A DNA stretch of 64,000 nt from an uncultured candidate division Zixibacteria bacterium (GCA_963713865.1 OY970208.1:416001-480000), one strand, 5' to 3'; shown: positions 23,742 to 37,487, counted from the first letter of the stretch. The notes: generated from the letters alone by a model not told the origin. Numbers and translations are program-made.

Positions 23742-23879
23742 AAGTGCTGAAAAAGTCCTGCCTGTCATTCTGAGGGAGAGTAGCGACCGAAGAATCTCTT
23801 TGGTTCGTACAGAGATTCTCCCCCCGCCTACGGCGGGGTTAGAATGACACTCTCTTATCCCCGGTTTTTCAACAGTCTT
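23742..23879. repeat. MITE-like ends enclosing a GTCATTCTGAG-type double-hairpin repeat
   Basis: aagtgctgaaaaa...tttttcaacagtctt ends; inner gtcattctgaggga..gaagaatctc..gagattct..agaatgac, also present at 62031-62120. Confidence 0.6.
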
Positions 23880-23905
23880 AAAGGTTCGCACTCCAGTCAT
23901 TCTTT

Positions 23906-24775
23906 TTATTCTTTCAATAAACTCACATCTGCAGGCATGCCCGGCTTTAAAATCTGCAAAGGGTTATCCAGGCTGACCTTTATCCCGAAAACAAGCTTCA
24001 CCCTTTCCTCTTTGGTTTGGATATTCTTGGGAGTGAATTCAGCCTGGCTGGAGATATAAGTTACTTTCCCCTCGAAAACTTTATCCGGATAAGTATCTAT
24101 TTTGACCTCTGCCTTCTGTCCTAATTTAACTTTGCCTAAATCTGTTTCTTTGATATAGATTTTCACCCAGGGCTTGGAGAGATCCCCTAAGGTCAAAAGA
24201 GAGTTGCCGGGCAAGACCACTTCACCCATCTCTGTGTTTTTACTTAATACCAGACCATCAATCGGTGATTTTATTATGGAGTTATCTATATTGGTTTTGA
24301 TTAACTCGATAGTCGCCTTATTCTGCTCGGTCAAATGAGAGGCTAAATTAAACTGGTCCTTTGCCACATCATATTTTGTCTCCATATCATCCAATTGCTG
24401 CTGGGTAGCACTCCCGGCCTTGAAAAGCTCTTTTATTCTATCCAAATTAGTCTTGAGATTATCTAAACTGGACCTGGATTGGGAGAGTTGAGCCAAAGAA
24501 ACCTGATAAGCTGCTTCTACCTGTTTAAGCTGAGCCTGAAGCTCTTTTGCTTCTAACTCGATTAAAACTTGGCCTTTAATTACGCTGTCCCCTTCATCTA
24601 TCATAAGCTTTTCTATCCTTCCGGAAACCTTTGAGCTTACCTCCACCTCAGTAATCTCAATCGTGCCCGAGGCAGATATTTGGTTTTTATTATTTCCCCC
24701 TTTAGTCTTGAGCAAAAAATAAAGAACCAATCCCAAGACTATTATAAATAGAAACAAAATCCTTAGCCTTTTCAT
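23906..24775 (-). CDS. HlyD-family secretion adaptor (YbhG-like)
   Basis: ASGTIE, AEFTPKNIQTKEERVKLVF, LKPGMPA. Confidence 0.9.
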   Translation of the reverse strand: MKRLRILFLFIIVLGLVLYFLLKTKGGNNKNQISASGTIEITEVEVSSKVSGRIEKLMIDEGDSVIKGQVLIELEAKELQAQLKQVEAAYQVSLAQLSQSRSSLDNLKTNLDRIKELFKAGSATQQQLDDMETKYDVAKDQFNLASHLTEQNKATIELIKTNIDNSIIKSPIDGLVLSKNTEMGEVVLPGNSLLTLGDLSKPWVKIYIKETDLGKVKLGQKAEVKIDTYPDKVFEGKVTYISSQAEFTPKNIQTKEERVKLVFGIKVSLDNPLQILKPGMPADVSLLKE

Positions 24776-24870
24776 TATTTTCTCCTTTACCTTATTATCA
24801 TATCATTCTTAAATGAAGAATATAAGAACCTCCTCCCTTTTTCACAAATGAAATTAATTTTTTCGTTTTT

Positions 24871-25010
24871 GTAGTTGCCAAATTTATTGGCATTTGATTT
24901 TTGGTAGGTTAGACATTCCTATCTAACCGTCGTGAACACTTCGTAGCGTCCGGACCCGTATCGGATGTTTTTTTATAATTTTGTCGGGCAGTCTTTAAAG
25001 ACCTGACCTA
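24871..25010. repeat. Composite GTAG-type REP-like block, copy 1 of 4
   Basis: gtagttgcc..ggcatttgattttt plus tcgtagcgtccggacccgtatcgga; the latter core recurs at 30931, 32511 and 33887. Confidence 0.75.
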
Positions 25011-25029
25011 TAAAAAATAAGAATTTTTA

Positions 25030-25058
25030 TTGACAAGATTTTTGGGGTGTAGTATAAT
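25030..25058 (+). promoter_or_regulatory. Consensus sigma70 promoter of platform 1 (Pc-like)
   Basis: TTGACA-17 bp-TATAAT; near-identical copy at 33986-34014. Confidence 0.8.
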
Positions 25059-25106
25059 ATTAACTATAAAAGTCTGAATTTGAATTCATTGGGAGTTATA
25101 ATGGGA

Positions 25107-25186
25107 ATAAACGCAACAGGTTCGTCTATAACCCCAATTTTAAGATGATAAACGAACTTATTACGCCAGTAACCAAGTTAAATGAA
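25107..25186 (+). other. attI-like site 1 (crossover G/TT at 25177-25179)
   Basis: ataaacgaac...aaccaaGTTAAATGAA; the 10-mer is the exact reverse complement of ttcatttaac at 30697-30706. Confidence 0.6.
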
Positions 25187-25382
25187 ATTTCGGGTATGAA
25201 AAAGAGAGCAAGACATCGAATTTTCTTTTCGGTTTTGATATACTATTGTACTATTATAAGTCTTGCACAGGGGTACCTTGGTGTTATGGAGCTTTTGGGC
25301 TTATCTAGAGCGCGGATTGAATTGAGGAGAAAAAAATGAAAAAGGTAAATATGGAAACAAAATCTATCTACCTATTATAACT

Positions 25383-26543
25383 ATGTCTATAAGCACAAGC
25401 GTAATCAAAGAAGCTATTATTGAAAACCTCAAGAGTCAAGGATTTAAGATTAAAAAGAATGGATTAATCTCTATTTCTCAGAATCTGACAAAAGAGCATA
25501 TTAGAGGACTTCATGACCGTGGTCGTGTTGAAAAAATATTATCAGAAAAAACATTTATTAAGGAACACTTTAGTGAATTGTCTACTTATTTTGCAGATGG
25601 TACTTCAGTAAACCCTGAGAAATTTAAACCTGTTGTCCATATAGTACAGCCAGATACTGAGTTTTCAGCACTATTCCGTTTTGCAACACTACTTTGGAGT
25701 GTCCCTGTCTCTCAGGGATATGGTAGAAGATTAAGATTTATAGTCATTGATGAACATAACGGAAAGCTTGTTGGACTTTTCGCTCTTGGTGACCCCGTTT
25801 TTAATTTGAATGTCCGTGATAAATGGATTGGATGGGACCAACAATTGCGATCAGAAAGACTATATAATGTTATGGACTTATTTGTAGTCGGGGCTGTACC
25901 TCCTTATTCTCAATTGGTATGTGGTAAACTTATGGCAATGTTGGCTACAAGTTATGAAATTAGGAAAATCCTGTGGCATAAATACAGAGATTCAGAAACT
26001 ACGATCAAAAAAGAATTAAAAAAACCACACCTTGTCTTGTTAACTACCTCATCTGCCTTAGGTAGATCTTCGCTCTATAATCGAATAACTTTTAATGGGA
26101 AACCTCTTTTTATAAAAATCGGGGAAACGGTCGGTTGGGGACACTTCCATCTTTCTAATGGAAGCTTTAAACTAATGCGTAATTATTTAAGCTATATAGA
26201 ACATCCAATTAATAAATCTCATAGATTTGGACAAGGACCCAATTGGAAAATACGAACAATAAGAACCTGCCTTGAACTATTAGGGCTATCTCCTGATTTA
26301 TTAATGCACGGTATTAAAAGAGAGGTTTACATTGCACCTTTAGCAGAGAATTATAAAGAGTTTCTTTTAGGACAATCAAAGAGACCCAAGTATTATGAAA
26401 TAAGAAAAGAAAGTCTAATAGATTTTTTCACTCAGCGATGGCTTCTCCCGAGGTCGTTTCGCAATAATGATTACATAAGAGTTAGAGCAAAAGATATACT
26501 AAGAGAAATAAAGAAAATTGCAAAAGATAAAGAGGTTCATTGA
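25383..26543 (+). CDS. DUF4338 / Druantia DruA-like protein
   Basis: WSVPVSQGYGRRLRFIV, GKLVGLFALGDPVFNL..RD.WIGW, GAVPPY..L..GKL, TTSSALGRSS.YNR, recognised as DruA-family motifs. Confidence 0.75.
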   Translation: MSISTSVIKEAIIENLKSQGFKIKKNGLISISQNLTKEHIRGLHDRGRVEKILSEKTFIKEHFSELSTYFADGTSVNPEKFKPVVHIVQPDTEFSALFRFATLLWSVPVSQGYGRRLRFIVIDEHNGKLVGLFALGDPVFNLNVRDKWIGWDQQLRSERLYNVMDLFVVGAVPPYSQLVCGKLMAMLATSYEIRKILWHKYRDSETTIKKELKKPHLVLLTTSSALGRSSLYNRITFNGKPLFIKIGETVGWGHFHLSNGSFKLMRNYLSYIEHPINKSHRFGQGPNWKIRTIRTCLELLGLSPDLLMHGIKREVYIAPLAENYKEFLLGQSKRPKYYEIRKESLIDFFTQRWLLPRSFRNNDYIRVRAKDILREIKKIAKDKEVH

Positions 26544-26544
26544 A

Positions 26545-29070
26545 ATGGCAAAAAACTTTGAAGATATTAGTTGTATTTTCTGTGGAGAAAAAAACAATTG
26601 TAGAGATACAGCTTGCATCTCATGCAAAATGCCTCTAGATATTGGAAAAGAATTCTTAGGAAAAACCATTAATAACTACATCTTAAAGGAATATAAGACC
26701 AGAGGTTTTTATGGACTTACCTTTAGAGCAGTCGATAACTATGGGAAGAATTTTGCTATTAAGCTTATATCAACAAGTAGTTATTCAAAAAACAGCAAGG
26801 ATTTTTATAGAGAAGCTGGAATGTATGCAAATCTTCCTGCAACACCCTCAATTGTAAATTATGTTGGTGCTGGGGAGACAACAATCTTATACAACGACAG
26901 ACCTTTAGACTTTTTTTATATAGTTTGTCAGTGGGTAAATGGTTCAGTATTTAAAGATTTTATTTCCGATCAAAATGTTGAACCCGAGGATTTAATAATC
27001 GCGGCCAGAGATTTATTATTGGGATTACAGGACTTATATGATAACAACCTTTGGCATAATGACTTGCATGATGAAAATGTAATGATAGAACCCTTAAGCC
27101 AAACTCAAATTAGAAGATTTAATAGGTCGATCCCACGAATATATAGAATCATTGATGTAGGAAGTATGGTTTATAGAAATCCAGCAGATACAAAGTCATT
27201 CACAGATATGAATTGTATAGGGAATATATTGTTTCAAATATCCGAGAAACTCAAAACGAACTTTAGCGAGTTTCCAAAGGAAGATCAATATTTCATAAAT
27301 CTCTTAGATAGCACCTTTATTCAGATGATGGATGAACATCCTGGAAGATCATTTCCAACGCCTGTTGATGCTCTCAATCAAATAGAGGAATTTTATAAAA
27401 TTTCTCGAATTGGTGAAATTTCTCCAAGCAAGAAATTAGATAGCCCATATGGATATATAAATGCAAATGATATACCTTCTCCTTGGCTCTTAAAACAAAT
27501 GTTTTCAGACAAGTTCCCTTATTTTAATAGAATCATGAGTACGTCCGACCAATGCCTTTTAATTACTGGCCCCCGTGGATGTGGTAAGACCATGATTTTA
27601 AAATATATGCGTTTTATAACTATGTATGATTCTCAAGAAGAAAATAAAGAAGAATTCTTAAAAAATCTGCCATATATCGGCCTTTTTTTATCTGCCAGAA
27701 CAAACTTTGGAAACTATCTAGTTTCATATAGGCAACAAGAATGGATAAACAGTGAATCCAAAATTCTATTATATTTTAATATTCTGGTCTCGATTGAGCT
27801 AATAGATGTTCTTTACAGATTAGTTTTTGATCGTTTAATAGAAGAGCAGCAAATCAAACCAATAATCGATATGATATCAGAACGATTTTCCGTGCCCTTT
27901 GTGAATTTACTCACTGTCAAAACGAAACTGGTGCAAATTAGCAGACACTTGATAGCGAACAAAGATGTTACTACAACAATAGATAATTCAACCCCTGCCT
28001 ATTTGAATGATCTGTTCCAAGTTCTTAGAAGTGTTATTCCCATCATAAGAGATAAAGAAGTTATTATTTTGATAGATGATCTTTCTTTGCCTCGCATTCC
28101 TGTTAAAATACAAAAGTCTATTATTCCGTCTGTATTTAATACGGGGTCAAGTTATAAAACAAGGATTACTGCACATAGCGATGGAATAGTCTTTAAGGAT
28201 TATTCTGGTGAAGTATACAAAGCAAACAGAGATTTTACTCAAATTAATCTTGGATATGAATATTGGCAACTTTCAGAAAAATATGAGACGTGTCGTGATG
28301 GCTTTGATGACATATTAAACAAAAGATTTAATTTAGCAAAAAAAGAAACTTTTATAGGACTGGAAAACATGCTTGAGCGGGGTGATAAGTTGGATAATAT
28401 AGGGAGAGAAATCCACCGTTTATATAAGGAAAAACTTCTAAGAACCCTCAATTATCACGGGGCAAAAGTTTTAATTAAATTGTGCTCGGGTGACTTAAGT
28501 TATCTTCTTGAGATTTTAGGCAAAATGGAACTTCGAGCTAATGGAAAAACACCTATCCCAATCAGAATTCAAAATAGCGTAATCAGAAATTATGCAAGAA
28601 ACGAGTTAAGAAGTCTTCAGGATATTAGATCAGATTATATAAGATGTTCTCTTTATGATATTGCTTATTATTTTGGTGTATGGTCGAAAAGTCAGTTAAT
28701 AAAGGCAGATGAAGACTATATTCGGATTGAATTTCCCATGCAAAAACTTCCTGAAAAGTTAAAGGTTGTGGCAAGAGAATTACTTTGTTACGGGGTATTC
28801 ATAGACGGGGGGTCCAGCACTATGTCTGATGGACAAACTGCCCGAAAATTTCTATTCCGAAGAATATTCACTCCAGCGTTTCCGACTACATTCACTGATC
28901 ACAGCACGTATCCAATGGTACCGAAATCTTTCAAAAAATTTGTCGAGAATCCTAAAGATTTTGTTCGGGAAAGAATGAGCGCTTATGAAATACCTCCTTC
29001 AGAACAACAAAGATTAGAACAACTTGATTTAATGCTTGAAGATAATGGGGAACCCAATGAAAATCTTTAA
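26545..29070 (+). CDS. Zn-ribbon + Ser/Thr-type protein kinase + P-loop (STAND/ORC-CDC6-like) ATPase fusion
   Basis: CIFC..CISC; RGFYG, FAIK, REA, HNDLHDEN, IIDVG; Walker A GPRGCGKT, Walker B IILIDD; ATG 1 nt after upstream stop. Confidence 0.75.
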   Translation: MAKNFEDISCIFCGEKNNCRDTACISCKMPLDIGKEFLGKTINNYILKEYKTRGFYGLTFRAVDNYGKNFAIKLISTSSYSKNSKDFYREAGMYANLPATPSIVNYVGAGETTILYNDRPLDFFYIVCQWVNGSVFKDFISDQNVEPEDLIIAARDLLLGLQDLYDNNLWHNDLHDENVMIEPLSQTQIRRFNRSIPRIYRIIDVGSMVYRNPADTKSFTDMNCIGNILFQISEKLKTNFSEFPKEDQYFINLLDSTFIQMMDEHPGRSFPTPVDALNQIEEFYKISRIGEISPSKKLDSPYGYINANDIPSPWLLKQMFSDKFPYFNRIMSTSDQCLLITGPRGCGKTMILKYMRFITMYDSQEENKEEFLKNLPYIGLFLSARTNFGNYLVSYRQQEWINSESKILLYFNILVSIELIDVLYRLVFDRLIEEQQIKPIIDMISERFSVPFVNLLTVKTKLVQISRHLIANKDVTTTIDNSTPAYLNDLFQVLRSVIPIIRDKEVIILIDDLSLPRIPVKIQKSIIPSVFNTGSSYKTRITAHSDGIVFKDYSGEVYKANRDFTQINLGYEYWQLSEKYETCRDGFDDILNKRFNLAKKETFIGLENMLERGDKLDNIGREIHRLYKEKLLRTLNYHGAKVLIKLCSGDLSYLLEILGKMELRANGKTPIPIRIQNSVIRNYARNELRSLQDIRSDYIRCSLYDIAYYFGVWSKSQLIKADEDYIRIEFPMQKLPEKLKVVARELLCYGVFIDGGSSTMSDGQTARKFLFRRIFTPAFPTTFTDHSTYPMVPKSFKKFVENPKDFVRERMSAYEIPPSEQQRLEQLDLMLEDNGEPNENL

Positions 29071-30082
29071 ATTTATAGATAAACTGCAAGAGACTCCTTA
29101 TAAGAAAAAGAATCTCGTTCTAATTCTAGCTGCTGGCTTTGAAGAAAGGGATCTCTCAATTATTGAAATAATTAAAGCAGTTGCTATCCCTATAAAAAAA
29201 ATAATAGTTCTTGATTATGAGAATACAGAACAAAATGAGCCAGTCCGTTCAAAAGTTATTAACATGGCAAGGTCAATTTCAGCAGCTGTTAAAACAGTAA
29301 AAGTGGGAGAATTACCAAATCTGTTGACTCATATAGAAATACTTGAAAATGACATGTTAATCATAGATATCACAGGGATGTCAAGGATTATCATATTCCA
29401 AATTTTGAATCAAATTGACAAAGCAAAAATATCCTACAACATTGCATACACCGAGGCAGAAGAATATTTTCCGCTAAAAGGACTATATGACACTCTTATT
29501 GCAAATCAAGCAAGTGAAGAAGTTGCTTTTACCAGATATCTGGAAACCGAAAAAGCAGAATTTGTATACTCATATGATTGCTCCATAATTCAACCCCCTG
29601 AATTTATGGGTAATCCTGAGCCAGGGAGACCCGCAATGATATTAGCTTTTTTTACTTTTAAAAGATCACGCTTACAAGCTATATTGCAAGTTCTAGAAAT
29701 TGAAAAAAGAGTTTTAATCTTAAGTGAACCTGTAAGGCAAGACTTAAAATGGAGAAAGGATTTTATGAAAATTGCAAATCTGGATATAATCCAAAAAAAT
29801 GAACCAGATGTTAACATTCTGGGCACTCTTGACGCATTCCAGCTAATGGATTTTTTTGAGGATAAGATATACAGAAATAAAGAGTACACAAAATATAATT
29901 TGATACTCGCTCCTCTTGGGAGCAAAATGCAAACGATTGGAAGTTACTTATTTTGGAGAAAACATTCTGAAATTAGTGTTTTATTTTCACAACCAGGATC
30001 TTATTTTAAGGACGCCTACTCAAAAGGCTATAGAGATACATTCATCATTACTGCAGAAACATTAGAAAAGACCATATCTTGA
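29057..30082 (+). CDS. Hypothetical protein, probable tandem CARF-like Rossmann folds
   Basis: LILAAGFEER..IIDITGMSR..YTEAEEY and second half ILAFFTFKRSR..LAPLGSKMQ..FSQPGSY; overlaps the ATPase stop. Fold is inference. Confidence 0.55.
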   Translation: MKIFKFIDKLQETPYKKKNLVLILAAGFEERDLSIIEIIKAVAIPIKKIIVLDYENTEQNEPVRSKVINMARSISAAVKTVKVGELPNLLTHIEILENDMLIIDITGMSRIIIFQILNQIDKAKISYNIAYTEAEEYFPLKGLYDTLIANQASEEVAFTRYLETEKAEFVYSYDCSIIQPPEFMGNPEPGRPAMILAFFTFKRSRLQAILQVLEIEKRVLILSEPVRQDLKWRKDFMKIANLDIIQKNEPDVNILGTLDAFQLMDFFEDKIYRNKEYTKYNLILAPLGSKMQTIGSYLFWRKHSEISVLFSQPGSYFKDAYSKGYRDTFIITAETLEKTIS

Positions 30083-30093
30083 GATGGACTTTT

Positions 30094-30663
30094 ATGAAAG
30101 AAAATACCACTATAACAAAGACTCTTGATAGTTCAAGAAAGATTATTACAATAATTCTAATTTTTCAAATATTCCTGCTCCTCCTAACATTTGCGCTTTT
30201 ATTTATCAATAATGCAACACAATTGTATTTATTTAATATCGGATATTCTATCATTATAAATGCAGCTCTCTTTGGATTTGCAGGCTGTTTAATTTATTTT
30301 TCGCGTAAAAGCTATGTCTACTTAATAACAAATAAATTTTTGAAAATAGTAAACGATAACACTACAAATAAAGGAATTGATGATTATGTGATTTCTAATA
30401 TTATTTATGGATATTATTTATATTTGGCCCTACGACCTTTTGTAGGTCTTATTATCGGCCCAATTATATATATGTTAGTTCTTACAGGGTTAATTACTTT
30501 TATGAAAACTTCTATTTCAATGGACGCTGATTTATCACGATCTGGAAGATATTTAATTTATTTTCTCTCATTTATTGGCGGACATGCATCGAGCGATATT
30601 TTAGATTATTTTTCAAAATTAGCAAAAAAAATAGTTGAAAAAAGTAACGAAAAAATATCCTAG
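30094..30663 (+). CDS. Hypothetical 4-TM membrane protein
   Basis: Four hydrophobic segments, GFAG..LRPFVG..SFIGGHAS pattern; last gene before attC. Confidence 0.65.
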   Translation: MKENTTITKTLDSSRKIITIILIFQIFLLLLTFALLFINNATQLYLFNIGYSIIINAALFGFAGCLIYFSRKSYVYLITNKFLKIVNDNTTNKGIDDYVISNIIYGYYLYLALRPFVGLIIGPIIYMLVLTGLITFMKTSISMDADLSRSGRYLIYFLSFIGGHASSDILDYFSKLAKKIVEKSNEKIS

Positions 30664-30699
30664 AGGGGACGGTTCTATTTGAAGAATGCCCGAAACTTC

Positions 30700-30803
30700 A
30701 TTTAACAACAGGCTTGCGCAAAGGCCAACAGGCAAACAAAAACGCTTTATTATTGAATCCCTTGACTCTGGTGTTTTTGTTTCGCAAGCCCACCACGTTA
30801 TAC
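30700..30803 (+). other. attC-like site 1
   Basis: R'' ATTTAAC, L'' ggcttgcg (30711-30718), L' cgcaagcc (30783-30790), R' GTTATAC; 104 bp, just after a stop codon. Confidence 0.8.
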
Positions 30804-30893
30804 TCCCTCGTTTAGTCCGATTTTGCCCGCCTTATGCGGACTGTTTAAAGACATAATGAAATTTCTGTCCTACGGAGAAAAATATTCTATTTT

Positions 30894-31004
30894 GTAGTTG
30901 CCCAAATTATTGGGCATTTGATTTTTCAGTTCGTAGCGTCCGGACCCGTATCGGACGCTATTTTTTGGTAGATTTTGCCGGACAGACTTCATTGGCCCGA
31001 CCTA
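30894..31004. repeat. Composite REP-like block, copy 2
   Basis: gtagttgcccaaattattgggcatttgattttt, tcgtagcgtccggacccgtatcggacg, ..cccgaccta. Confidence 0.75.
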
Positions 31005-31141
31005 CTTTATAAAATCTCCTTGACAACGTACACGTTAAAATTATTTTAGCTTTGAACAGTTATGATTATAAGCACAGATTAAATCTAAACATTTCAGCGA
31101 TATTCCCTGGTCTTAACCGGAGAATATCCGAAGGAGGAAAG

Positions 31142-31786
31142 ATGAAAAAGATGAGTGCACTGGTTGTTCTCTTGGCGCTTTTGACTGGAGGTATTATGAA
31201 TGCCCAGGATTTAAAAACCATAAAGCTTCCTGCTCCCGCTTTAAAGAACGACAAACTGTTCATGCAAACAGTAAAAGAGAGAAAAAGCAGCCGGGAATTC
31301 TCCGAAAAGGAGCTCAGCCTGCAGGACCTGTCTAACCTGCTCTGGTGTGCCAACGGGGTTAACCGGCCGGAAAGCGGAATGCGCACCAGCCCCTCAGCCA
31401 TGAATAAGCAGGACGTGGACGTTTATGCAGTATTGAAAGATGGGATATATCTGTATGAAGCCATAAAGCATGAGCTACTTCCTGTCGTTTCCGGAGATTT
31501 TCGCAAAAATACCGGTATGCAGCCCTATGTAGGCACTGCCCCTCTGAACCTGGTCTATGTTTCCGATCTTGCTAAATTCGATTTCGTTAAAGAGCGGGAA
31601 GGGCAGGTTATGACTGCAGCCATAGATGCCGGACACTGTTCGCAGAATGTGTATCTGTATGGAGCTGCCGCCAACCTGGCGGTTGTCACCCGCACCTCGA
31701 TTGATAAGACAAAAATGGCTGAAATATTAAAACTGAGACCCCAGCAGCTGGTCATAATGGCACAAACCGTCGGTTACCCGAAATGA
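31142..31786 (+). CDS. SagB/ThcOx-like nitroreductase-family protein with signal peptide
   Basis: ERKSSREFS, LSNLLWCANG, RTSPSA, DAGHCSQNVYL; RBS ggagga before ATG 31142. Confidence 0.85.
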   Translation: MKKMSALVVLLALLTGGIMNAQDLKTIKLPAPALKNDKLFMQTVKERKSSREFSEKELSLQDLSNLLWCANGVNRPESGMRTSPSAMNKQDVDVYAVLKDGIYLYEAIKHELLPVVSGDFRKNTGMQPYVGTAPLNLVYVSDLAKFDFVKEREGQVMTAAIDAGHCSQNVYLYGAAANLAVVTRTSIDKTKMAEILKLRPQQLVIMAQTVGYPK

Positions 31787-31943
31787 GTAGGTTGGGTTTC
31801 GATAGCTACCCATCTACGAAAAAGTAGCGTTGCCACTCCGGCCCTACGGGGGCTTGCTCTGGCAACGATATTTATTAACAGATAATCGTCCTCACTGGAG
31901 TGAGGACGCTACGGTTTTTATTAAATTTGTTCAATTAATACTT

Positions 31944-32423
31944 ATGTCTGAAATCAAATATCGAAAAGCAAATAGTAAAGACGCGAATGCCATATCGCTC
32001 CTCTGGGCTGAATTTTTCGATTATCATTTCTCAGTAGACCCGCTTTATCAGCGCAGGATAGACTCGGAAAAGGATATCGCCGATCTCCTGATAAAAGCAG
32101 TTGACGATGAAAATAAATTCATATGCGTGGCTGAATGCAATGAGAGTTTAATTGGCTACATCTGGTGTGAAATCGATAAAAAGCCCCCCTGTTACGAAAA
32201 CCGTTTTTACGGACTGGTGAGCGACATTGCAGTTACTAAAAAGTACAGAGGAAAGGGCATTGCCAAATCACTGCTCAAAAACGGGCTTGACTGGTTCAAA
32301 ACTAAAGATATAAAACATATTGAAGCTCGCGTATTGTTAGCCAATCCATTGGCTACCAAATTCTGGACATCAAGCGGCTTTGAACCTTTTATTAAAATAT
32401 TTCGCTATAAACTGAATAAATAA
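31944..32423 (+). CDS. GNAT-family N-acetyltransferase
   Basis: IAVTKKYRGKGIA acetyl-CoA motif; NPLATKFWTSSGF. Confidence 0.88.
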   Translation: MSEIKYRKANSKDANAISLLWAEFFDYHFSVDPLYQRRIDSEKDIADLLIKAVDDENKFICVAECNESLIGYIWCEIDKKPPCYENRFYGLVSDIAVTKKYRGKGIAKSLLKNGLDWFKTKDIKHIEARVLLANPLATKFWTSSGFEPFIKIFRYKLNK

Positions 32424-32510
32424 AGCTGGGATTTAGGACAGAATCCGCCTTAGGCGGATTCTGTCCCTACTTAGCTACACGACAATAAAGATTTTTTTAT
32501 TTTTTGAAGT

Positions 32511-32580
32511 TCGTAGCGTCCGAACCCGTGTCGGACGTTCTTTTTATAACTTTGCCGGGTAATTCCCATTGCCCGACCTG
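32511..32580. repeat. Composite REP-like block, copy 3
   Basis: tcgtagcgtccgaacccgtgtcggacg..tttgccggg..cccgacct. Confidence 0.7.
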
Positions 32581-32612
32581 TCTGTAATCTTCTTATTAAT
32601 TAAAAAATTTTG

Positions 32613-32640
32613 TTGTGAATTATTCTAAATTGGGTATAAT
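32613..32640 (+). promoter_or_regulatory. Probable sigma70 promoter of platform 2
   Basis: TTGTGA-16 bp-TATAAT at a position equivalent to platforms 1 and 3. Confidence 0.5.
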
Positions 32641-32778
32641 ATTAAAGGTATAGGTACTAAAAGCATTAGCAAGAGGAAGAGTCCTTTAGACACTTTAAAT
32701 TTAGGGAAAGGAGGTCTCGGGCTGACCCCGATTTATCGGGGTCAGAGTAGAGGAAGGCTGATCTTCAGCCAGAGGTGG

Positions 32779-32816
32779 TATAGACGAACCAATTCGTCTA
32801 TGAACAAGCTATCGGA
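32779..32816 (+). other. attI-like site 2 (core reads GCT instead of GTT)
   Basis: tatagacgaaccaattcgtctatgaacaaGCTATCGGA, almost identical to 34140-34171; 8/9 complementary to tccgataac at 33647-33655. Confidence 0.6.
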
Positions 32817-32854
32817 AATAAATTATTTTTTTATTGCTATTTTTTTGCTTTTAT

Positions 32855-33640
32855 ATGAAAAAATTAAACTTTCAACCTTCATTTCTACAAATTTTATATT
32901 TGGTAATCTATTTAATTCTATTTTCTTTTATAATTTCTACTCCGATATTAATCAGTGGATCTGTATATTTAACGGAAAAATTTATTGTCGATGAAGAAAT
33001 CATCGAAGGGTCTCTTCTTGGTATTTCGTTTTTTCTGAGTATTTTGATATTAAATTTATATAAACATGAAGTTTACAAACAAAAAGAACTAATTAAAAAA
33101 ATTAATAATGATAAAAAGACGGCTGAGGAAAAGCTTTTTGATTCATTGAATTATATTGGTAAAGTAAATGTCCAAATTCAGGAAATTAAGTCAATTTTTA
33201 ATAATACTAATAAATATCCGGAAACAAAAAATGATTTTAAAAAAGCCTTCCGTTTTCTTAGCGGGCGCGTTCTTGGAATCGTAAACACGAATTGGGTCTT
33301 ATTTAGAATAATTAACAGCAATACCCAGAAAACTATCAGCGAATGCTTTGAAACAAGGCAAGGCTTTTCTTTTAATCATCCTCAGATCAAGAATAAAATG
33401 ATTATTGAAAAACAACTTATTTTACCCTTTACTACAGTCATTTCAAATCCGCAAAATTTAAATATCCTCGTCTGTTGTGTTTTGCCCATCGATGAAATCA
33501 GCAATGATCAGCGTATTTTTATTCAAGCTATTATAAACGAGATCACTATGCTGTTTGTTATTTTAAATTCCTCATATTACAAAAACGAAAATAACATTCT
33601 TGCAGAAAATAAACCTGCTAAAAAAATAGTAAAAAAATAA
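32855..33640 (+). CDS. Hypothetical protein, 2 TM + coiled coil + soluble domain (cassette 2, 32809-33766)
   Basis: AT-rich ORF between attI-like and attC-like sites. Confidence 0.7.
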   Translation: MKKLNFQPSFLQILYLVIYLILFSFIISTPILISGSVYLTEKFIVDEEIIEGSLLGISFFLSILILNLYKHEVYKQKELIKKINNDKKTAEEKLFDSLNYIGKVNVQIQEIKSIFNNTNKYPETKNDFKKAFRFLSGRVLGIVNTNWVLFRIINSNTQKTISECFETRQGFSFNHPQIKNKMIIEKQLILPFTTVISNPQNLNILVCCVLPIDEISNDQRIFIQAIINEITMLFVILNSSYYKNENNILAENKPAKKIVKK

Positions 33641-33648
33641 TTTACCTC

Positions 33649-33772
33649 CGATAACAAGTTATCTCCGGTCCGGGAATTTTTCAATTAATAAAATTAAGGT
33701 GCGCTAAATCCCCTCCCCTGAATTCGCTTTCGTTTCACTTCAGCGAACTTCAGATCTACCTGAACGTTAATC
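33649..33772 (+). other. attC-like site 2 (degenerate L boxes)
   Basis: CGATAAC 8 nt after stop codon ... cagatctacctgaacGTTAATC. Confidence 0.6.
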
Positions 33773-33886
33773 TGATCTTAGATCTTGTAGAAAGGATATA
33801 ATAAAATTCCTGTCCTGCGGAGAAAAATATTCTATTTTGCAGTTGCCCAATCAATTGAACCTTTTTTAAGCATTGACACGGTCAGC

Positions 33887-33955
33887 TCGTAGCGTCCGAA
33901 CCTGTGTCGGACGTTTTTTTTAAATTTTGTCTGTCAGTCACTGACAGCCCGACCT
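33887..33955. repeat. Composite REP-like block, copy 4
   Basis: tcgtagcgtccgaacctgtgtcggacg..tttgtc..cccgacct. Confidence 0.7.
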
Positions 33956-33985
33956 GGGAAACTTGTAAAAAAATCAAAATTTTTC

Positions 33986-34014
33986 TTGACAAGATTTTTG
34001 GGGGTTAGTATTAT
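33986..34014 (+). promoter_or_regulatory. sigma70 promoter of platform 3 (Pc-like)
   Basis: TTGACA-agatttttgggggttag (17 bp)-TATTAT, near-identical to 25030-25058. Confidence 0.75.
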
Positions 34015-34139
34015 ATTGACAGTTCAATTTCTAATTTACATCTATGGGGAGAATATATTCGTCATAGTCGTCTATATCTCTCTATAAGGAGCAATACCCG
34101 GTGTAGCTGCCGTAAAACTTTTATCGGACAAAATTGGAG

Positions 34140-34178
34140 TATAAACGAACCAATTCGTCTATGAACAAGTTATGTGAA
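34140..34178 (+). other. attI-like site 3 (crossover G/TT at 34169-34171)
   Basis: tataaacgaaccaattcgtctatgaacaaGTTATGTGAA; the 10-mer is the exact reverse complement of ttcacataac at 35274-35283. Confidence 0.65.
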
Positions 34179-34231
34179 ATTGCACTGCCATGTAACTAAT
34201 TGTCATTTTGGTTCAAACCTTAAGGCCGAAC

Positions 34232-35227
34232 ATGAAATCGTCAAACCTTCTTTTCCTTGTGGTTCTCTCCACTTTTTATCTCAATGTTTCCGGGGCTCAG
34301 GGAAAACTGGATGTTCCAAGTGCCATCTCGATCAAGATTCAAACCTCAAAGGCACAGCCAGCTGTGGGAAGCGGACTGGGGGTCATGGCAGAAATCAAGA
34401 ATGTGTCCAACACCATTGTTAGCCTCCATGCGAAAAGTCTTACGCTTACGCTTCCACCGGAACTCGAGGGGCCTTTCCAGCCTTCCTGGGCCGAGTACGC
34501 ATTGTTTCCCACTGAAATGGAAACCCCAAAAGACTACTACGATGCCTACATAAGGCTTCAACCCGGAGATACATACAAAGTCTTTTGGAGTCCGGGAAGG
34601 GGAGAGAAGACAAGCGACACGCCTTCTTTCTCTCCAATTATAACCCTCGTAAAGACAATCACATCCGAACTGCGATTTCTCTTATTTTCGCCCGGCGAAT
34701 ACACATTAACCGTTAATGCAAAGTATTGGCTCGAACCCAATAACAATTATCATACGGTTACGGAAAGTACCACACTTCCTTTCGCTGCACCAGAGTCAGT
34801 GATTCTTGTGGGTGCTGCATTTGGCGGTTTGATTGCGTTCTATCTATTCCCCCAGGCACGGCGAAGGTTTGTCATGCGCAAGAAACCCCGCGAGGATTCC
34901 CTCATGGCATTCGTCTTATTTGTCGTGAAAGAGGTCACAGGTATTACTGGCTCGATCCTCCTGAGCGTAGTAGTCACAATCCTCCTTTCGCGAATCTCTG
35001 AAACACAGTTCCTTATTAAAGTAACCATCACCGATTTCTGGGGAGCCATTGCCATAGGATTTGTGGCGAATTACTCAGGGGCGAAAATCCTCGATAGGTG
35101 GCCACCACAGGGTACTTCATCATCCGTTCAGGTTGGTTCCCCTACCCCATCAGCGGAAGCAGCGGCAACTGCCGGAGAAAAAGTGCTCTCCAATGAAGAG
35201 AAACACGAGGACCGTGAAGGCAAATGA
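34232..35227 (+). CDS. Hypothetical protein: signal peptide, beta-rich extracytoplasmic domain, C-terminal 3-TM region (cassette 3, 34170-35370)
   Basis: Leader MKSSNLLFLVVLS; GAAFGGLIAF and AIAIGFVANYSG helices. Confidence 0.7.
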   Translation: MKSSNLLFLVVLSTFYLNVSGAQGKLDVPSAISIKIQTSKAQPAVGSGLGVMAEIKNVSNTIVSLHAKSLTLTLPPELEGPFQPSWAEYALFPTEMETPKDYYDAYIRLQPGDTYKVFWSPGRGEKTSDTPSFSPIITLVKTITSELRFLLFSPGEYTLTVNAKYWLEPNNNYHTVTESTTLPFAAPESVILVGAAFGGLIAFYLFPQARRRFVMRKKPREDSLMAFVLFVVKEVTGITGSILLSVVVTILLSRISETQFLIKVTITDFWGAIAIGFVANYSGAKILDRWPPQGTSSSVQVGSPTPSAEAAATAGEKVLSNEEKHEDREGK

Positions 35228-35276
35228 TATCGGTAGGACGAAAGTATGGCAAGGGGTTTCATAAGAGTGTAACTTC

Positions 35277-35376
35277 ACATAACAGTCGGCACAATCAAAA
35301 GTGTTCGCTCATCACCTCGCTCATTTGATAGAAAAGCATGGTGCTCGGCGTTGCGTTGTGCCGCGGGATGTTATAT
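35277..35376 (+). other. attC-like site 3
   Basis: R'' ACATAAC, L'' cggcacaa (35287-35294), L' ttgtgccg (35356-35363), R' GTTATAT; 100 bp. Confidence 0.82.
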
Positions 35377-35418
35377 GGCAGTATGCTCAATGTTCAACTT
35401 AATTCAACGGAGTGAACC

Positions 35419-35709
35419 ATGAAACATAAAGTTGCAGTTGAAGTTACGGGCCACTTTACATCGGTTTTTGTTCAACTAGAGGGTGTTGAGATCGGGCTCT
35501 CCTTTGATGGTGACAAGACCTGGAAAGCAACGAAAGAACTTGAAATCGTAGGAGACCTTGACCTCGTATTCGAAGTCCGTGGCTTGAATGGGACGCAATG
35601 GACTATTTCAATCACGCTGGATGATGCTGAAAAACCAACGTTCAAAAAGTCAGGCACCATCGAACACGATAATCGCTACTTCCTGAAGGTATCAATACCT
35701 GTAAAATGA
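35419..35709 (+). CDS. Hypothetical small beta-rich protein (cassette 4, gene 1)
   Basis: 96 aa ORF with RBS ggag, starts 42 nt after attC. Confidence 0.7.
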   Translation: MKHKVAVEVTGHFTSVFVQLEGVEIGLSFDGDKTWKATKELEIVGDLDLVFEVRGLNGTQWTISITLDDAEKPTFKKSGTIEHDNRYFLKVSIPVK

Positions 35710-35730
35710 CCGGAAAGGAGAGGTTCGTTT

Positions 35731-36627
35731 ATGAAAAGTTTACTGATGATATTGCCATTATTTCTCTTATCCTTCTCATTGGGATGGGCTCAATCCAGCT
35801 TTGAAGATTCTGACGGAAAGAGTAGCTTCATATTTGATGAGATAGGAGGGACTGGAAAAATCAATTTGACAGATGCCAGTATCAAGATCAGCTATCTCTA
35901 TCGGAAGAGCAATAAACCCTGCCGCTATGGCGTTGAACTCTCAGGCAAAGCAACAAATGGGATCAGCACACTTTTTGAAAAAGACAATATTGCACCTGAG
36001 GCAAAAGTGAAGGTGTCTTTTGGCCGCCAGTGGCTTCTGAGCAAGAAGTCCCCCGGCAGCGATAAAGTAAAGAGGGGCATTATCGTTGATGACTGGGCAA
36101 CCATTCAACTGGGTTACTCCAGGGCACAATACAAACTGTTTACTCCATCAAAGCCCCTTGCTGATCAAATACAGAAAAAAAACTTCGATGGTTTCTCTCT
36201 CACAGCATATTACAATGCGCTCCTGAGAGGCAATGTCTTAATAGGTCTTTCTATAGGACTCGATCACCAAAGCAACTACACCTCCCTGAAAGAAATCGAA
36301 CTGTCTGATAGAACAACTGTATTTGACAGTGCCGGTTTTTCGCGCATAACGAACAAGACCGAAAAACTCCGGCAGGGGAACTTCGCTGAAGTAAACCACT
36401 TTCTTGGGAACTATGATATCGTTTGGGTGCCAGAGTTTCTACATAATCGAATCGGTTTTGATCTATTTAGCAGGTTTGACTGGAATAAGGATGACAATTC
36501 ATTCAAACCCGGTATTGGCGTCTTCATAACTGAAGAAGAGGCGTGGACCAAAGTGGTCGGTGGTATCACTTTTGAGTCGGTTGAAGGAAACCTTAGGGTC
36601 GGACTTCTCGCTGGGTTTAATTTCTGA
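35731..36627 (+). CDS. Hypothetical exported protein, likely outer-membrane beta-barrel (cassette 4, gene 2)
   Basis: Signal peptide, alternating amphipathic strands, C-terminal AGFNF; RBS aggag. Confidence 0.65.
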   Translation: MKSLLMILPLFLLSFSLGWAQSSFEDSDGKSSFIFDEIGGTGKINLTDASIKISYLYRKSNKPCRYGVELSGKATNGISTLFEKDNIAPEAKVKVSFGRQWLLSKKSPGSDKVKRGIIVDDWATIQLGYSRAQYKLFTPSKPLADQIQKKNFDGFSLTAYYNALLRGNVLIGLSIGLDHQSNYTSLKEIELSDRTTVFDSAGFSRITNKTEKLRQGNFAEVNHFLGNYDIVWVPEFLHNRIGFDLFSRFDWNKDDNSFKPGIGVFITEEEAWTKVVGGITFESVEGNLRVGLLAGFNF

Positions 36628-36649
36628 ATTAGTTCATGAGCGTGCCACC

Positions 36650-36753
36650 CCATAACAATCGCAACCACGACATTCGCTCTTTCAAATAATTATTATAGTT
36701 CTAACTCAATGGCGGAACTGTGTGGTTGCTCGAACCGGTACATTTTGTTTGGC
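36650..36753 (+). other. attC-like site 4 (degenerate spacing)
   Basis: CCATAAC, L'' gcaaccac (36661-36668), L' gtggttgc (36722-36729); core GTTTGGC at 36747 lies about 10 nt further out than in the other sites. Confidence 0.6.
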
Positions 36754-36873
36754 GATTTGAAAGGAGGTGTGTATAAGATGTAGAAAGGGGAGTAAGAGCT
36801 TTTGTGACCGGTGGATGGTTTTAGTTCAACAAAAAGTCAGTGGACAAATCTCAAAAACAAAAGAGGTAACATT

Positions 36874-37218
36874 ATGGCAACGGTTAATTTTGAAGTTAAG
36901 AATTATGAAATTAAGATTGCTAGAGAACTAAACGGTACGGCAGGTGGACTTAACCTAAAGTTCCCTGCTTATATTCTTTGTAAAGGAGTTGAATACCATG
37001 CTGTTGTATACGTTCTAGACGATACCAGCCCGGTACCAGCTAACACATTTCTGCCAGCATACAAAAGAGGTACGATTTTTGTTCCAAGATGGCAATTTAA
37101 ATGGTTTGTTGATCTACTTCGCAACGAGAAACCTATATTTTGCTACCTCAACAGTGATACGCCAAAGTGGAATAGTCTTTATACTGGAGCAGAGCCAGTA
37201 GGTGAAGCAGAGATATAA
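36874..37218 (+). CDS. Hypothetical protein (cassette 5, 36748-37363)
   Basis: RBS gagg before ATG 36874; C-terminal DLLRNEKP..TGAEPVGE. Confidence 0.7.
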   Translation: MATVNFEVKNYEIKIARELNGTAGGLNLKFPAYILCKGVEYHAVVYVLDDTSPVPANTFLPAYKRGTIFVPRWQFKWFVDLLRNEKPIFCYLNSDTPKWNSLYTGAEPVGEAEI

Positions 37219-37260
37219 ATTAGCTTGTGGATAGAATATGGTTTTACATGAAAAACGGTC

Positions 37261-37369
37261 GCCTAACAATGGATTGGTGTTGGTAAAACCCTTCGGGAAA
37301 TCGGCAGGCTTTATTTTCGTATTTTTAAAGGAAGAAGCCTGCCGACTTCGCCAATCCAAACCGTTATAC
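37261..37369 (+). other. attC-like site 5
   Basis: R'' GCCTAAC, ggattgg/ccaatcc boxes, inner stem tcggcaggctt/aagcctgccga, R' GTTATAC; 109 bp. Confidence 0.82.
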
Positions 37370-37487
37370 GCCATCATTTAGTCTAATTTTTATCCCCGTT
37401 AGGCGGACTGTGGAAAGGATATAATGAAATTCCTGAAGATAAACATTATGATTTTACGATTAAATTGAATCTGTCCCTTCCTACGGA

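Follow-up and report, generated by a model that had tools for sequence, protein, structure and literature searches.

We analyzed a 64,000-nucleotide stretch of DNA, hereafter the window (G000:C1:416001-480000), from an uncultured candidate division Zixibacteria bacterium whose genome (G000) is a single contig of 2.72 Mb. The window contains a variable island (24860-37435) that holds three platform units, in each of which a promoter and an attI-type left arm precede cassettes with attC-like ends. To its left lies a gene (23906-24775, minus strand) that has membrane-fusion domains of the HlyD type, and to its right hutH, which encodes a histidine/aromatic ammonia-lyase (37488-38996, minus strand). 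We consider it probable that this is a chromosomal gene-capture island of the integron type without its recombinase, at a hot spot of variation bounded by these two genes. The anatomy of the units, the conservation of their junctions, the link to a recombinase in homologous copies, the lack of an intact integrase and the variability of the locus were observed directly. We interpret the region as decayed, multiplied and mosaic integron platforms, a variant of attC-site clusters without an integron-integrase (CALINs) or of complex integrons, and we infer the route of multiplication and the enzyme that loaded the cassettes.

Anatomy of the platform units

The units have a common order of elements, namely two terminator-like hairpins, a near-consensus promoter, a leader, a left arm, attC cassettes and a right arm. 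A sequence-only reading of the window had described three tandem units at 24850-37450 downstream of an HlyD adaptor gene. Both descriptions agree with our results, as all of the elements it listed were located at, or within a few bases of, the positions it gave, and the upstream gene encodes HlyD-type membrane-fusion domains. A repeat finder recovered a four-copy family (D1; 24941, 30931, 32511 and 33887), an 84-nt promoter block common to 25012 and 33968 with 76% identity (D2; promoter P1 vs P3), right-arm blocks (D3 and D12), and the short left arm (D7), which is 90% identical over 42 nt between 32778 and 34139. Inverted repeats linked the starts of cassettes to their ends (I10, 21 nt, 90%; I1, 41 nt, 78%; I2, 38 nt, 74%). 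The platforms have two arm types, one long copy and two short ones, with mosaic promoters and leaders, and are not copies of one unit.

Left arms. The long left arm (attI-type A; 25104-25179, plus strand) has its crossover, G|TT, at 25177-25179. The short arms (type B) are located in unit 2 (32778-32810, plus strand), where a 9-bp palindrome and GAACAA are followed by G|CT, and in unit 3 (34139-34171, plus strand), with the crossover G|TT at 34169-34171. The three arms end at the G at 25177, 32808 and 34169, respectively, and GTTCGTYTAT motifs are repeated in the arms.

Right arms. These start at 30797 and 37363 with GTTATAC and at 33766 with GTTAATC, and have the block AAAGGATATAATRAAATTCCTG in common. 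Right arm 1 (30797-30867, plus strand) reads GTTATAC..TTTAGTC.. followed by a hairpin and AAAGACATAATGAAATTTCTG; right arm 2 (33766-33812, plus strand) is a variant in which GTTAATC.. is followed by AAAGGATATAATAAAATTCCTG; and the terminal right arm (37363-37435, plus strand) again reads GTTATAC..TTTAGTC.., then a hairpin and AAAGGATATAATGAAATTCCTG. Direct reading and the repeat blocks D3 and D12 both bear out the earlier description of conserved right arms at these three positions.

Promoters and terminators. Unit 1 is preceded by an insulator of two hairpins, each with a T-run, at 24876-24892 and 24945-24969 (plus strand), the second being the motif previously labeled a repetitive extragenic palindromic (REP) block. 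Promoter P1 (25030-25058, plus strand) has TTGACA and TATAAT separated by 17 nt and matches the consensus at 12/12 positions. Unit 2 has a REP terminator at 32515-32539 and promoter P2 at 32613-32640 (10/12), and unit 3 a REP terminator at 33891-33915 and promoter P3 at 33986-34014 (11/12), all on the plus strand. The sites at 25030, 33986, 31020 and 32613 rank among the best plus-strand matches of the promoter scan, which supports the sigma-70 promoters proposed for the three units, and each platform is predicted to be driven by its own sigma-70 promoter. The four REP copies were the top plus-strand sites of the terminator scan, with a GC-rich stem of 9-11 bp and then a T-run. The REP label itself had to be dropped. 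With up to five mismatches allowed, the motif has four copies in the 2.72-Mb genome, every one in this locus, which rules out a genome-wide REP element and leaves a local terminator-like hairpin. Rfam gave no match in the leaders within 24700-37600, and its sole sub-threshold match, at 28.9 bits (gathering threshold 55.8), lay within cassette 1 and was to an unrelated plastid family. Small open reading frames (ORFs), 15 codons long in the leader of unit 1 and 13-14 codons long in the right arms, were rejected as coding, being not conserved in relatives.

Cassettes. Five cassettes lie on the plus strand, each with an attC-like site at its end. Cassette 1 (25177-30803; attC 30700-30803; the 21-nt inverted repeat I10) is 5.6 kb long, has a GC content of ~0.32 vs ~0.42 in the flanks, and carries genes for DruA (25383-26543), a Ser/Thr kinase with an AAA ATPase (26518-29070) and a CARF-like protein (29036-30082), followed by an ORF without a family (30079-30663). 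Cassette 2 (32808-33772; attC 33649-33772; GC ~0.30) has an ORF that starts at 32834 or 32855 and ends at 33640. Cassette 3 (34169-35376; attC 35277-35376; the 38-nt repeat I2) has an ORF at 34208-35227, cassette 4 (35370-36753; attC 36650-36753) has ORFs at 35419-35709 and 35731-36627, and cassette 5 (36747-37369; attC 37261-37369) has an ORF that starts at 36811 or 36874 and ends at 37218. Pfam, NCBIfam and PADLOC gave no family for the products of cassettes 2-5 or for the ORF at 30079-30663. In cassette 1, PADLOC matched DruA (E 1.5e-137), the kinase-ATPase of CARF systems (E 1.7e-62) and the CARF-like protein (E 1.2e-22), and the combination made up no complete known Druantia or CARF system among the PADLOC models run. 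Cassette 1 is likely a defence-type operon (DruA, kinase-ATPase and CARF-like protein) in a first position that is predicted to be strongly transcribed.

Cassette ends. The attC sites were delimited manually and by folding as single-stranded DNA against 200 shuffles each. The sites at 30700, 35277 and 37261 have the canonical layout, in which R'' (xxxxAAC) is followed by 5 nt, a 7-8-bp L''/L' stem, 5-6 nt and GTT. Fold z-scores were -2.15, -1.20, -3.18, -0.62 and -3.77 for the sites at 30700, 33649, 35277, 36650 and 37261, respectively. When eight attC sites from outside the window were aligned with MAFFT, only the AAC and GTT ends aligned; judged by this alignment, true attC sites here have structure alone in common. 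A first rule-based attC finder gave no matches, and a second recovered three of the five sites among 22 matches over both strands of the window, of which 11 fell within the region, and serves as a pointer only.

The starts of the cassettes are complementary to their own R'' over 14 nt at 13, 11, 12, 9 and 8 positions (cassettes 1-5), against a mean of 7.55 and a maximum of 10 in the 20 cross pairings, a background that is high because all cassette ends have a consensus in common. The complementarity of start and own R'' that had been taken as a footprint of cassette insertion is thus strong in cassettes 1-3 and weak in cassettes 4 and 5. The start consensus extends well past GTT, roughly GTTRNNNGAAATTKCGGGCATGA, with its complement in the ends, and was seen at 25177-25200, at 34169-34190, at L133:3695-3715 in another locus of the genome and on many metagenome contigs. 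Complementary starts and ends amount to terminal inverted repeats of 20-40 nt, beyond the 7-nt core boxes. Downstream of metagenome junctions, the reverse complement of the first 12 nt (up to one mismatch) was found in 8/41 cases vs 2/41 in a reversed-sequence control, a test too strict to serve as a census.

Resident unit. Between units 1 and 2 lies a resident unit without an attI (30899-32470, plus strand), recognized with Pfam and the promoter and terminator scans. It consists of a hairpin (30899-30916), a REP terminator (30933-30961), a promoter-like site (31020-31047, 10/12), genes for a nitroreductase (31052-31786) and a GNAT protein (31830-32423), and a closing hairpin (32440-32470). 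It is headed by the fourth REP copy, lacks a left arm and has a host-like GC content. Three short repeats, at 23745-23893, 31825-31915 and 32434-32471, are truly dispersed, in contrast to the local REP motif; they had dozens of copies across all genomes of the family by BLAST, the last being a GC hairpin 3' of the GNAT gene.

Variability of the locus in relatives and metagenomes

By GTDB rank, the comparison genomes comprised 9 genomes of the family, 34 of the order and 285 of the class, which here equals the phylum. G002 belongs to the same genus as G000; G003, G005, G006 and G008 belong to other genera of the family; and G010 belongs to the same order. In G002, whose flanks are 87-88% identical, the locus is empty: the HlyD-type gene and hutH are ~113 bp apart and all of the 12.6 kb present between them in G000 is missing. 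In G005, the long arm meets another cassette, one that ends in a 158-nt attC, at the same G|TT, and in G006 it is followed at that point by yet another cassette start. Three promoter units are present in G003, together with an ortholog of cassette 2 (78% identity) whose junction context differs, and the long arm of this genome stands third in order, ahead of multi-gene cargo; this cargo (L098:3750-7230, minus strand) is a block of ~3.4 kb that runs up to the hutH stop. G008 has a nitroreductase gene between two REP copies beside the HlyD-type gene. The block of promoter, leader and arm is 84-88% identical across genera vs 73-77% for neighboring genes.

Metagenome junctions were found with a 23-nt arm pattern situated 40-62 nt upstream of the junction, which gave 45 sites on 44 contigs. 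The contigs came from sediment, wetland and groundwater-type metagenomes. At least 6 of the 44 represent the same HlyD-hutH locus in relatives (flank proteins 81-93% identical), among them L161, which has one platform with other cargo between flanking proteins of 90-93% identity; the remaining contigs have no HlyD or hutH flanks. Sufficient surrounding sequence was available at 43 sites and yielded 33 unique junctions. Mean column entropy over these was 0.74 bits at positions -30 to -1 vs 1.62 bits at +3 to +32, with the jump directly after GTTA; 31/33 junctions start with GTT, and there were 26 distinct first 10-mers. A fixed G|TT insertion point followed by variable cassettes, as in an attI site, was therefore found in the 33 junctions and in G003, G005 and G006, and the left arms appear to behave as attI-type sites. 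The different cargo that had been predicted for related genomes is present, with the same arm followed by different DNA at G|TT in these three genomes and on the 44 contigs. Given this alternative cargo and the empty locus of G002, content at the locus is not fixed among relatives.

The GTTATAC right arm follows the last attC in L139, L153 (twice), L161, L173, L177 (twice) and G006. This position behind the last attC elsewhere makes it the obvious choice for the attI's original right half, which it presumably is. L177 carries two left arms and two right arms on one metagenome contig, which means that tandem units are not peculiar to G000. Across the 285 genomes the right-arm pattern matched two arms in the G000 locus and one in G006, with one-mismatch matches in G066 and G186.

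Environmental contigs with at least 88% likeness to the window showed alternative joints, each represented by one contig of one run: 24860 joined to 30885, which removes unit 1; 30916 joined to 33888; a joint between promoter 3 and the long arm; and one between REP 3 and promoter 1. Parts of the stretch that these contigs leave uncovered are uninformative. To judge from such joints, homologous recombination between parts of the platforms continues in related populations. Among public sequencing runs, none held more than 0.19 of the sampled words, and there was no RNA run among the listed holders.

In the long arm, a hairpin at 25130-25150 changes from CCCC..GGGG to CTCC..GGAG in G006 and L159, which is a compensatory pair. 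The hairpin is broken in G000 (CCCC..GATG), and its place is common to G005, G006, L159 and other contigs.

Recombinases and their relics

No match to PF00589 or TIGR02249 was found in the window. The whole genome has three tyrosine-recombinase loci, consisting of an intact Xer-like gene, a frameshifted Xer-like gene and an IntI remnant. The remnant, at 753.9 kb, is an ORF of 97 codons whose last 69 residues match the IntI C-terminus (106.7 bits, model positions 247-315). Its locus (G000:C1:753,800-755,000; L001:1377-2600) has an attI ending ..CCATATAACCATCG|TTGGGC and one cassette with a 67-nt attC, and the insert is bracketed by a direct repeat of ~35-45 nt (L001:1377-1420 and 2553-2600). 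G000 therefore contains no intact integron integrase, only this remnant and two relics of a shorter recombinase described below. The earlier claim that an integrase is absent locally holds for the genome as a whole, and its companion, that the window has no tyrosine recombinase, is right as far as domain matches go and misses a relic of ~21 codons in the leader of unit 2.

Canonical IntI. IntI above the family cut-off was present in 7/285 genomes of the class. In three genomes with a canonical IntI, the attI lies downstream of the intI stop on the same strand and ends ..CATATAAAC or ..CATATAACC, followed by 3-4 nt and G|TTRGGY. The core of these canonical sites (..ATAAAC/ATAACC, 2-4 nt, G|TTRGGY) has the same geometry as the arms in the window, and the attI of the IntI remnant in G000 is of the same canonical type.

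Short recombinase. The arm family of the window was linked to a different enzyme. Upstream sequence of 300 nt or more was available for 38 metagenome sites. At 14 of these, fragments of one and the same recombinase gene lie directly upstream in the same orientation, and the other 24 had none. The linked recombinase ends ..KSLGKIRSPLDxxNLGKGG, with ~85 nt between this end and the arm. A full-length copy of 286 aa, with 80% identity to the one on contig L148, is present in G010, with a junction, ..GGATATGAACGAG|TTATAC, ~170 nt downstream. In L148, the first 10 nt of the cassette that follows the arm are complementary to the R'' at its own end; the recombinase of L148 is cut by the contig end and so is not provably full length. 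Adjacency of the attI family to a recombinase gene was thus found in G010 and L148 and as fragments at the 14 sites, and in the window as a relic only.

This relic (32653-32715, plus strand) corresponds to the last ~21 codons of the short IntI-like recombinase and translates to ..KSISKRKSPLDTLNLGKGG. The unit 2 leader aligned to the 3' end of the gene and the following spacer in five contigs with 84-90 identical positions out of 136-139 nt, and with scores of 91-106 vs 49 ± 6 for shuffles (maximum 68). A second relic, frameshifted, was found with tblastn at G000:C1:1,868,351-1,868,472 (minus strand), reading ..LESGTDLRYIQE.. and ..GKITSPLD.., and has no recognizable left arm behind it.

The G010 protein scored 219 bits on TIGR02249, below the IntI cut-off of 265, and its best family was NF040815, 'site-specific tyrosine recombinase/integron integrase' (240 bits, cut-off 220). 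Compared with three canonical IntI of the class, the short recombinase is missing ~41 residues at the place of the IntI-specific insertion, which has ~35 residues and lies near patch III. It aligned to the sequence of the IntI4 structure in two stretches (148 bits) and to XerA in one (145 bits). Pfam domains PF13495 and PF00589, found in an identical protein, and the motifs ..HxLRHSFATHLL.. and ..LLGH..TTxIYTH.. identify it as a tyrosine recombinase. On these sequence comparisons, the recombinase beside the attI family is IntI/XerA-like and no canonical IntI.

Intact short recombinase occurs in 1/285 genomes of the phylum. Its homologues number several thousand, with 74-86% identity among the best 120 listed, and such high conservation across phyla suggests recent spread of the short recombinase on a mobile element. 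The listed relatives carry the metagenome-assembled genome labels Nitrospirota, Desulfobacteria, Acidobacteriota, Armatimonadetes, WOR-3 and Micrarchaeota, and many are 350-400 aa as called, perhaps from an N-terminal extension or from mis-called starts. Distant relatives (33-47% identity, 8 loci) had no arm-like motif downstream of their genes, which leaves the G010/L148 clade as the only one linked to the attI family. In G005, locus L006 (G005:C101:1-3270) has a short recombinase without the IntI insertion that is divergent to two cassettes with GNAT-like and LysE-like ORFs, split by an 85-nt attC with GCCTAAC/GTTAGGC, a classical integron layout with a non-canonical integrase.

Other platform loci. 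A second integrase-less platform lies at 523.6 kb in the same genome (G000:C1:523,400-526,600; L133:3400-6600), with a TTGACA/TATATT promoter and a leader that has ..CTTCAGCCAGA.. in common with unit 2. Its variant long arm ends ..ATAAACGAG|TTAAGT and is followed by one cassette with a canonical attC and then further ORFs. G002 carries an arm of this type on another contig with a different cassette start. At 668 kb (G000:C1:668,300-672,350, minus strand), another junction module, ..AATTTAATTAG.ATAGATAAACC.ATG|TTRG.., occurs three times, each time in front of different genes, and the last 12 nt of the module resemble the arm cores of the window.

Competing explanations and relation to known integrons

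The cassettes would have joined the left arms at G|TT by attI × attC recombination, with the integrase acting in cis or in trans. The platforms may descend from integrons with an integrase gene just upstream in the same orientation, and this gene would have decayed by deletion, with ~21 codons left in unit 2 and none in units 1 and 3; the metagenome copies of the recombinase gene show every stage of such decay. The heads would have been kept after integrase loss, probably because they drive expression, and the outcome may be several strongly transcribed first positions. With no intact integrase of either kind in the genome, site-specific cassette traffic is probably frozen in G000, and now only homologous exchange between repeated platform parts would be expected. 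The sequence-only reading had proposed that the platform was multiplied and then loaded independently by an integrase in trans. The attI-like arms and the lack of an intact integrase fit that proposal, the decayed and mosaic heads do not, and the structure could equally result from either of two mechanisms, multiplication followed by loading in trans or insertion of a platform as a cassette.

We lean towards the short recombinase, rather than a canonical IntI, as the enzyme that loaded the cassettes. Loading by a canonical IntI in trans, with the short recombinase doing other work such as Xer-like resolution or platform movement, is possible without being the explanation we favor. It would account for canonical attC sites in a genome whose true IntI remnant is accompanied by an attI of its own and by one cassette, in a class where seven genomes have IntI above the cut-off and the attI core geometry matches the arms, and it would suit a short recombinase without the insertion described as needed for attC (PMC9668308). 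It is at odds with the account that attI is normally recognized by its cognate integrase only (PMC2095811), with the consistent position of the arm family behind the short recombinase gene, just as canonical attI lies behind intI, and with the attC-ended cassette in L148 directly behind an arm linked to the short recombinase. The platforms could also have been mobile themselves, which we judge unlikely. From the right arm at G|TTATAC, by way of terminators, promoter and leader, to the left arm at ..AAG|, a platform would then be a non-coding, promoter-bearing cassette whose circle carries a complete attI, and insertion into attC sites would split one array into transcribed blocks. Each internal platform is indeed preceded by an attC with the R' GTTATAC or GTTAATC and followed by a start that matches its own R'', flanks that are the exact outcome of attI × attC insertion of a circle. 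The short arm begins with GTATARAC, the near complement of GTTATAC, the order of right arm to left arm recurs in L177 and L153, and cassettes ended by attI or delta-attI are reported to be moved by IntI1 in class 1 and 2 integrons (PMC12901181). The first platform, however, has neither an attC nor a proximal right arm in front of it, so that at least one platform must be resident. The module was not seen as a circle or on its own, and the spacers between units hold pieces like both chromosomal flanks (ATGAAATT.. and CCTACGGA), which weakly favors tandem duplication.

Two further explanations dispense with attI sites altogether. The left arms could be decayed or specialized attC halves from a single ancestral array, and the locus a plain CALIN interrupted by inserted promoters. 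The long arm is an imperfect palindrome of ~75 nt with the compensatory change from CCCC/GGGG to CTCC/GGAG in G006 and L159, and the short arm is a 9-bp hairpin, features that such an origin would explain. We nevertheless regard it as very unlikely: the arm sequence is conserved over ~75 nt across 44 contigs, whereas true attC sites here conserve structure alone, the arms lie at a fixed distance behind the recombinase gene, and they lack an R''/L''/L'/R' arrangement with the proportions of an attC, the long arm folding no better than its shuffles (z -0.65). More improbable still is a cis-regulatory RNA, made up of promoter and leader, whose cargo is swapped by homologous recombination or deletion without any integron chemistry. 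Leader identities of 84-88% against 73-77% in neighboring coding DNA and a leader hairpin with one compensatory change would be in keeping with such an RNA. Against it stand leaders with no Rfam match, the exact G|TT breakpoint followed by starts of the GTTRRRY type, cassette ends that are inverted copies of the starts followed by attC hairpins, and the recombinase relic in the leader of unit 2.

Several observations weigh against the integron-type interpretation. Of the conserved left arms said to end in aa|GTT, all three exist at 25177, 32808 and 34169, and the crossover triplet of unit 2 is mutated to GCT. Attribution of the cassette ends to attC is similarly partial. Three sites are canonical with folds better than shuffles; of the other two, the site at 33649-33772 is degenerate and folds poorly (z -1.2), and that at 36650-36753 is atypical, with an 18-nt L'-R' spacer (z -0.6). 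As a ~75-nt imperfect palindrome, the long arm could act in an attC-like folded mode. The cargo behind the long arm of G003 has no recognizable attC or right arm before hutH. Empty sites in relatives, which the sequence-only reading had suggested looking for, are represented by the empty locus of G002 and not by a left arm fused to a GTTATAC right arm; such an empty platform was absent from the 45 metagenome junctions and, by the right-arm pattern, from the 285 genomes. Among the metagenome recombinase copies, 0/14 were demonstrably full length, and recombination is not demonstrable in G000, which has no integrase. A tblastn search of the genome with the short recombinase did not find the unit 2 relic at E ≤ 10; the protein piece is too short for tblastn, and the relic rests on the nucleotide alignment against shuffles. 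Finally, the short recombinase lacks the IntI insertion thought to be needed for folded attC, and a recombinase without this insertion is not expected to handle such sites (Messier and Roy 2001, cited in PMC9668308).

The definition of integrons and the searches for them rely on the integrase and on attC sites, attI is known for few classes, and arrays without an integrase count as featureless CALINs. The In104 integron of Salmonella genomic island 1 consists of two head-to-tail integrons, the second attI1 lying behind a truncated intI1, with one intact intI1, as part of a mobile resistance island. It resembles the present locus in having more than one attI, with the internal one behind a truncated integrase gene as in unit 2, and differs from it in that the present locus has three heads with two arm types and terminators that insulate them, and lacks an intact integrase. 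No intI with the IntI-specific domain lies beside the array, as a complete integron would have. With the manual attC calls, there are two or more attC sites in the region, with no intI within clustering distance, which places it among CALINs, and IntegronFinder would class it as one or more of these. CALINs have been described as attC clusters without an integrase and proposed to be degraded integrons, with IntI pseudogenes near 15/279 of them (PMC4889954), and the category is also used in IntegronFinder 2.0 (PMC9024848). The locus resembles them as a row of attC-bounded cassettes with no intI nearby. However, it keeps three tandem attI sites with promoters behind terminator-like hairpins, and its relic is of a recombinase undetected by the IntI-specific profile.

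A co-oriented integrase with the attI downstream of intI defines the 'inverted integron-integrase group' (PMC4889954), and archaeal integrons are likewise described with attI just downstream of intI (Ghaly et al. 2022, PMC9668308). The present family has in common with these the arrangement of recombinase gene, attI and cassettes on one strand and insertion at G|TT, a layout seen for canonical IntI in the three class genomes and for the short recombinase in G010 and L148. It differs in that the gene in the window is gone or reduced to ~21 codons and in that the linked enzyme lacks the IntI additional domain, treated as defining in those papers as far as they bear on it. Internal delta-attI sites act as cassette ends in clinical integrons (PMC12901181), so the distinction originally drawn from both a canonical integron and a plain CALIN stands for the retained attI heads, whereas internal or second attI sites have a precedent. 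The likeness lies in attI or partial attI sites inside arrays that are usable as cassette ends; those in the clinical integrons of that report are short remnants behind resistance genes in integrase-bearing integrons, whereas here whole heads are present on an integrase-less chromosome. Anti-phage defence systems have been reported as integron cassettes (preprint 10.1101/2024.07.02.601686), and cassette 1 resembles these as a compact four-gene operon in the first and, by prediction, best-expressed position; it differs in matching no complete Druantia or CARF system and in being known from its sequence alone. In the literature covered, outside supplementary lists, we found no report of complete terminator-promoter-attI heads standing in tandem at an integrase-less chromosomal locus, nor of a link between an attI family and an IntI-like enzyme devoid of the additional domain.

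A bolder possibility, which we consider less likely than not, is that the arms belong to a distinct and widespread integron-like class, in which an IntI/XerA-like integrase of ~290 aa, without the 'indispensable' attC domain, would be encoded upstream in the same orientation, and in which platforms would routinely outlive the gene, multiply as expression slots insulated by terminators and devoid of a recombinase, and be served in trans. The locus shows that an integron head, i.e., promoter and attI, can persist, diversify and stand in tandem after integrase loss. The short recombinase is a testable candidate for an integrase outside the IntI definition, found in a capture context and yet without the element credited with making recombination of single-stranded attC possible. 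Activity of this enzyme on attC would call for a revised account of the origin of integron integrases, and would mean that a class is overlooked in profile-based integron censuses. If it is inactive on attC, the locus would still be a clean example of how a CALIN originates and continues to be expressed.

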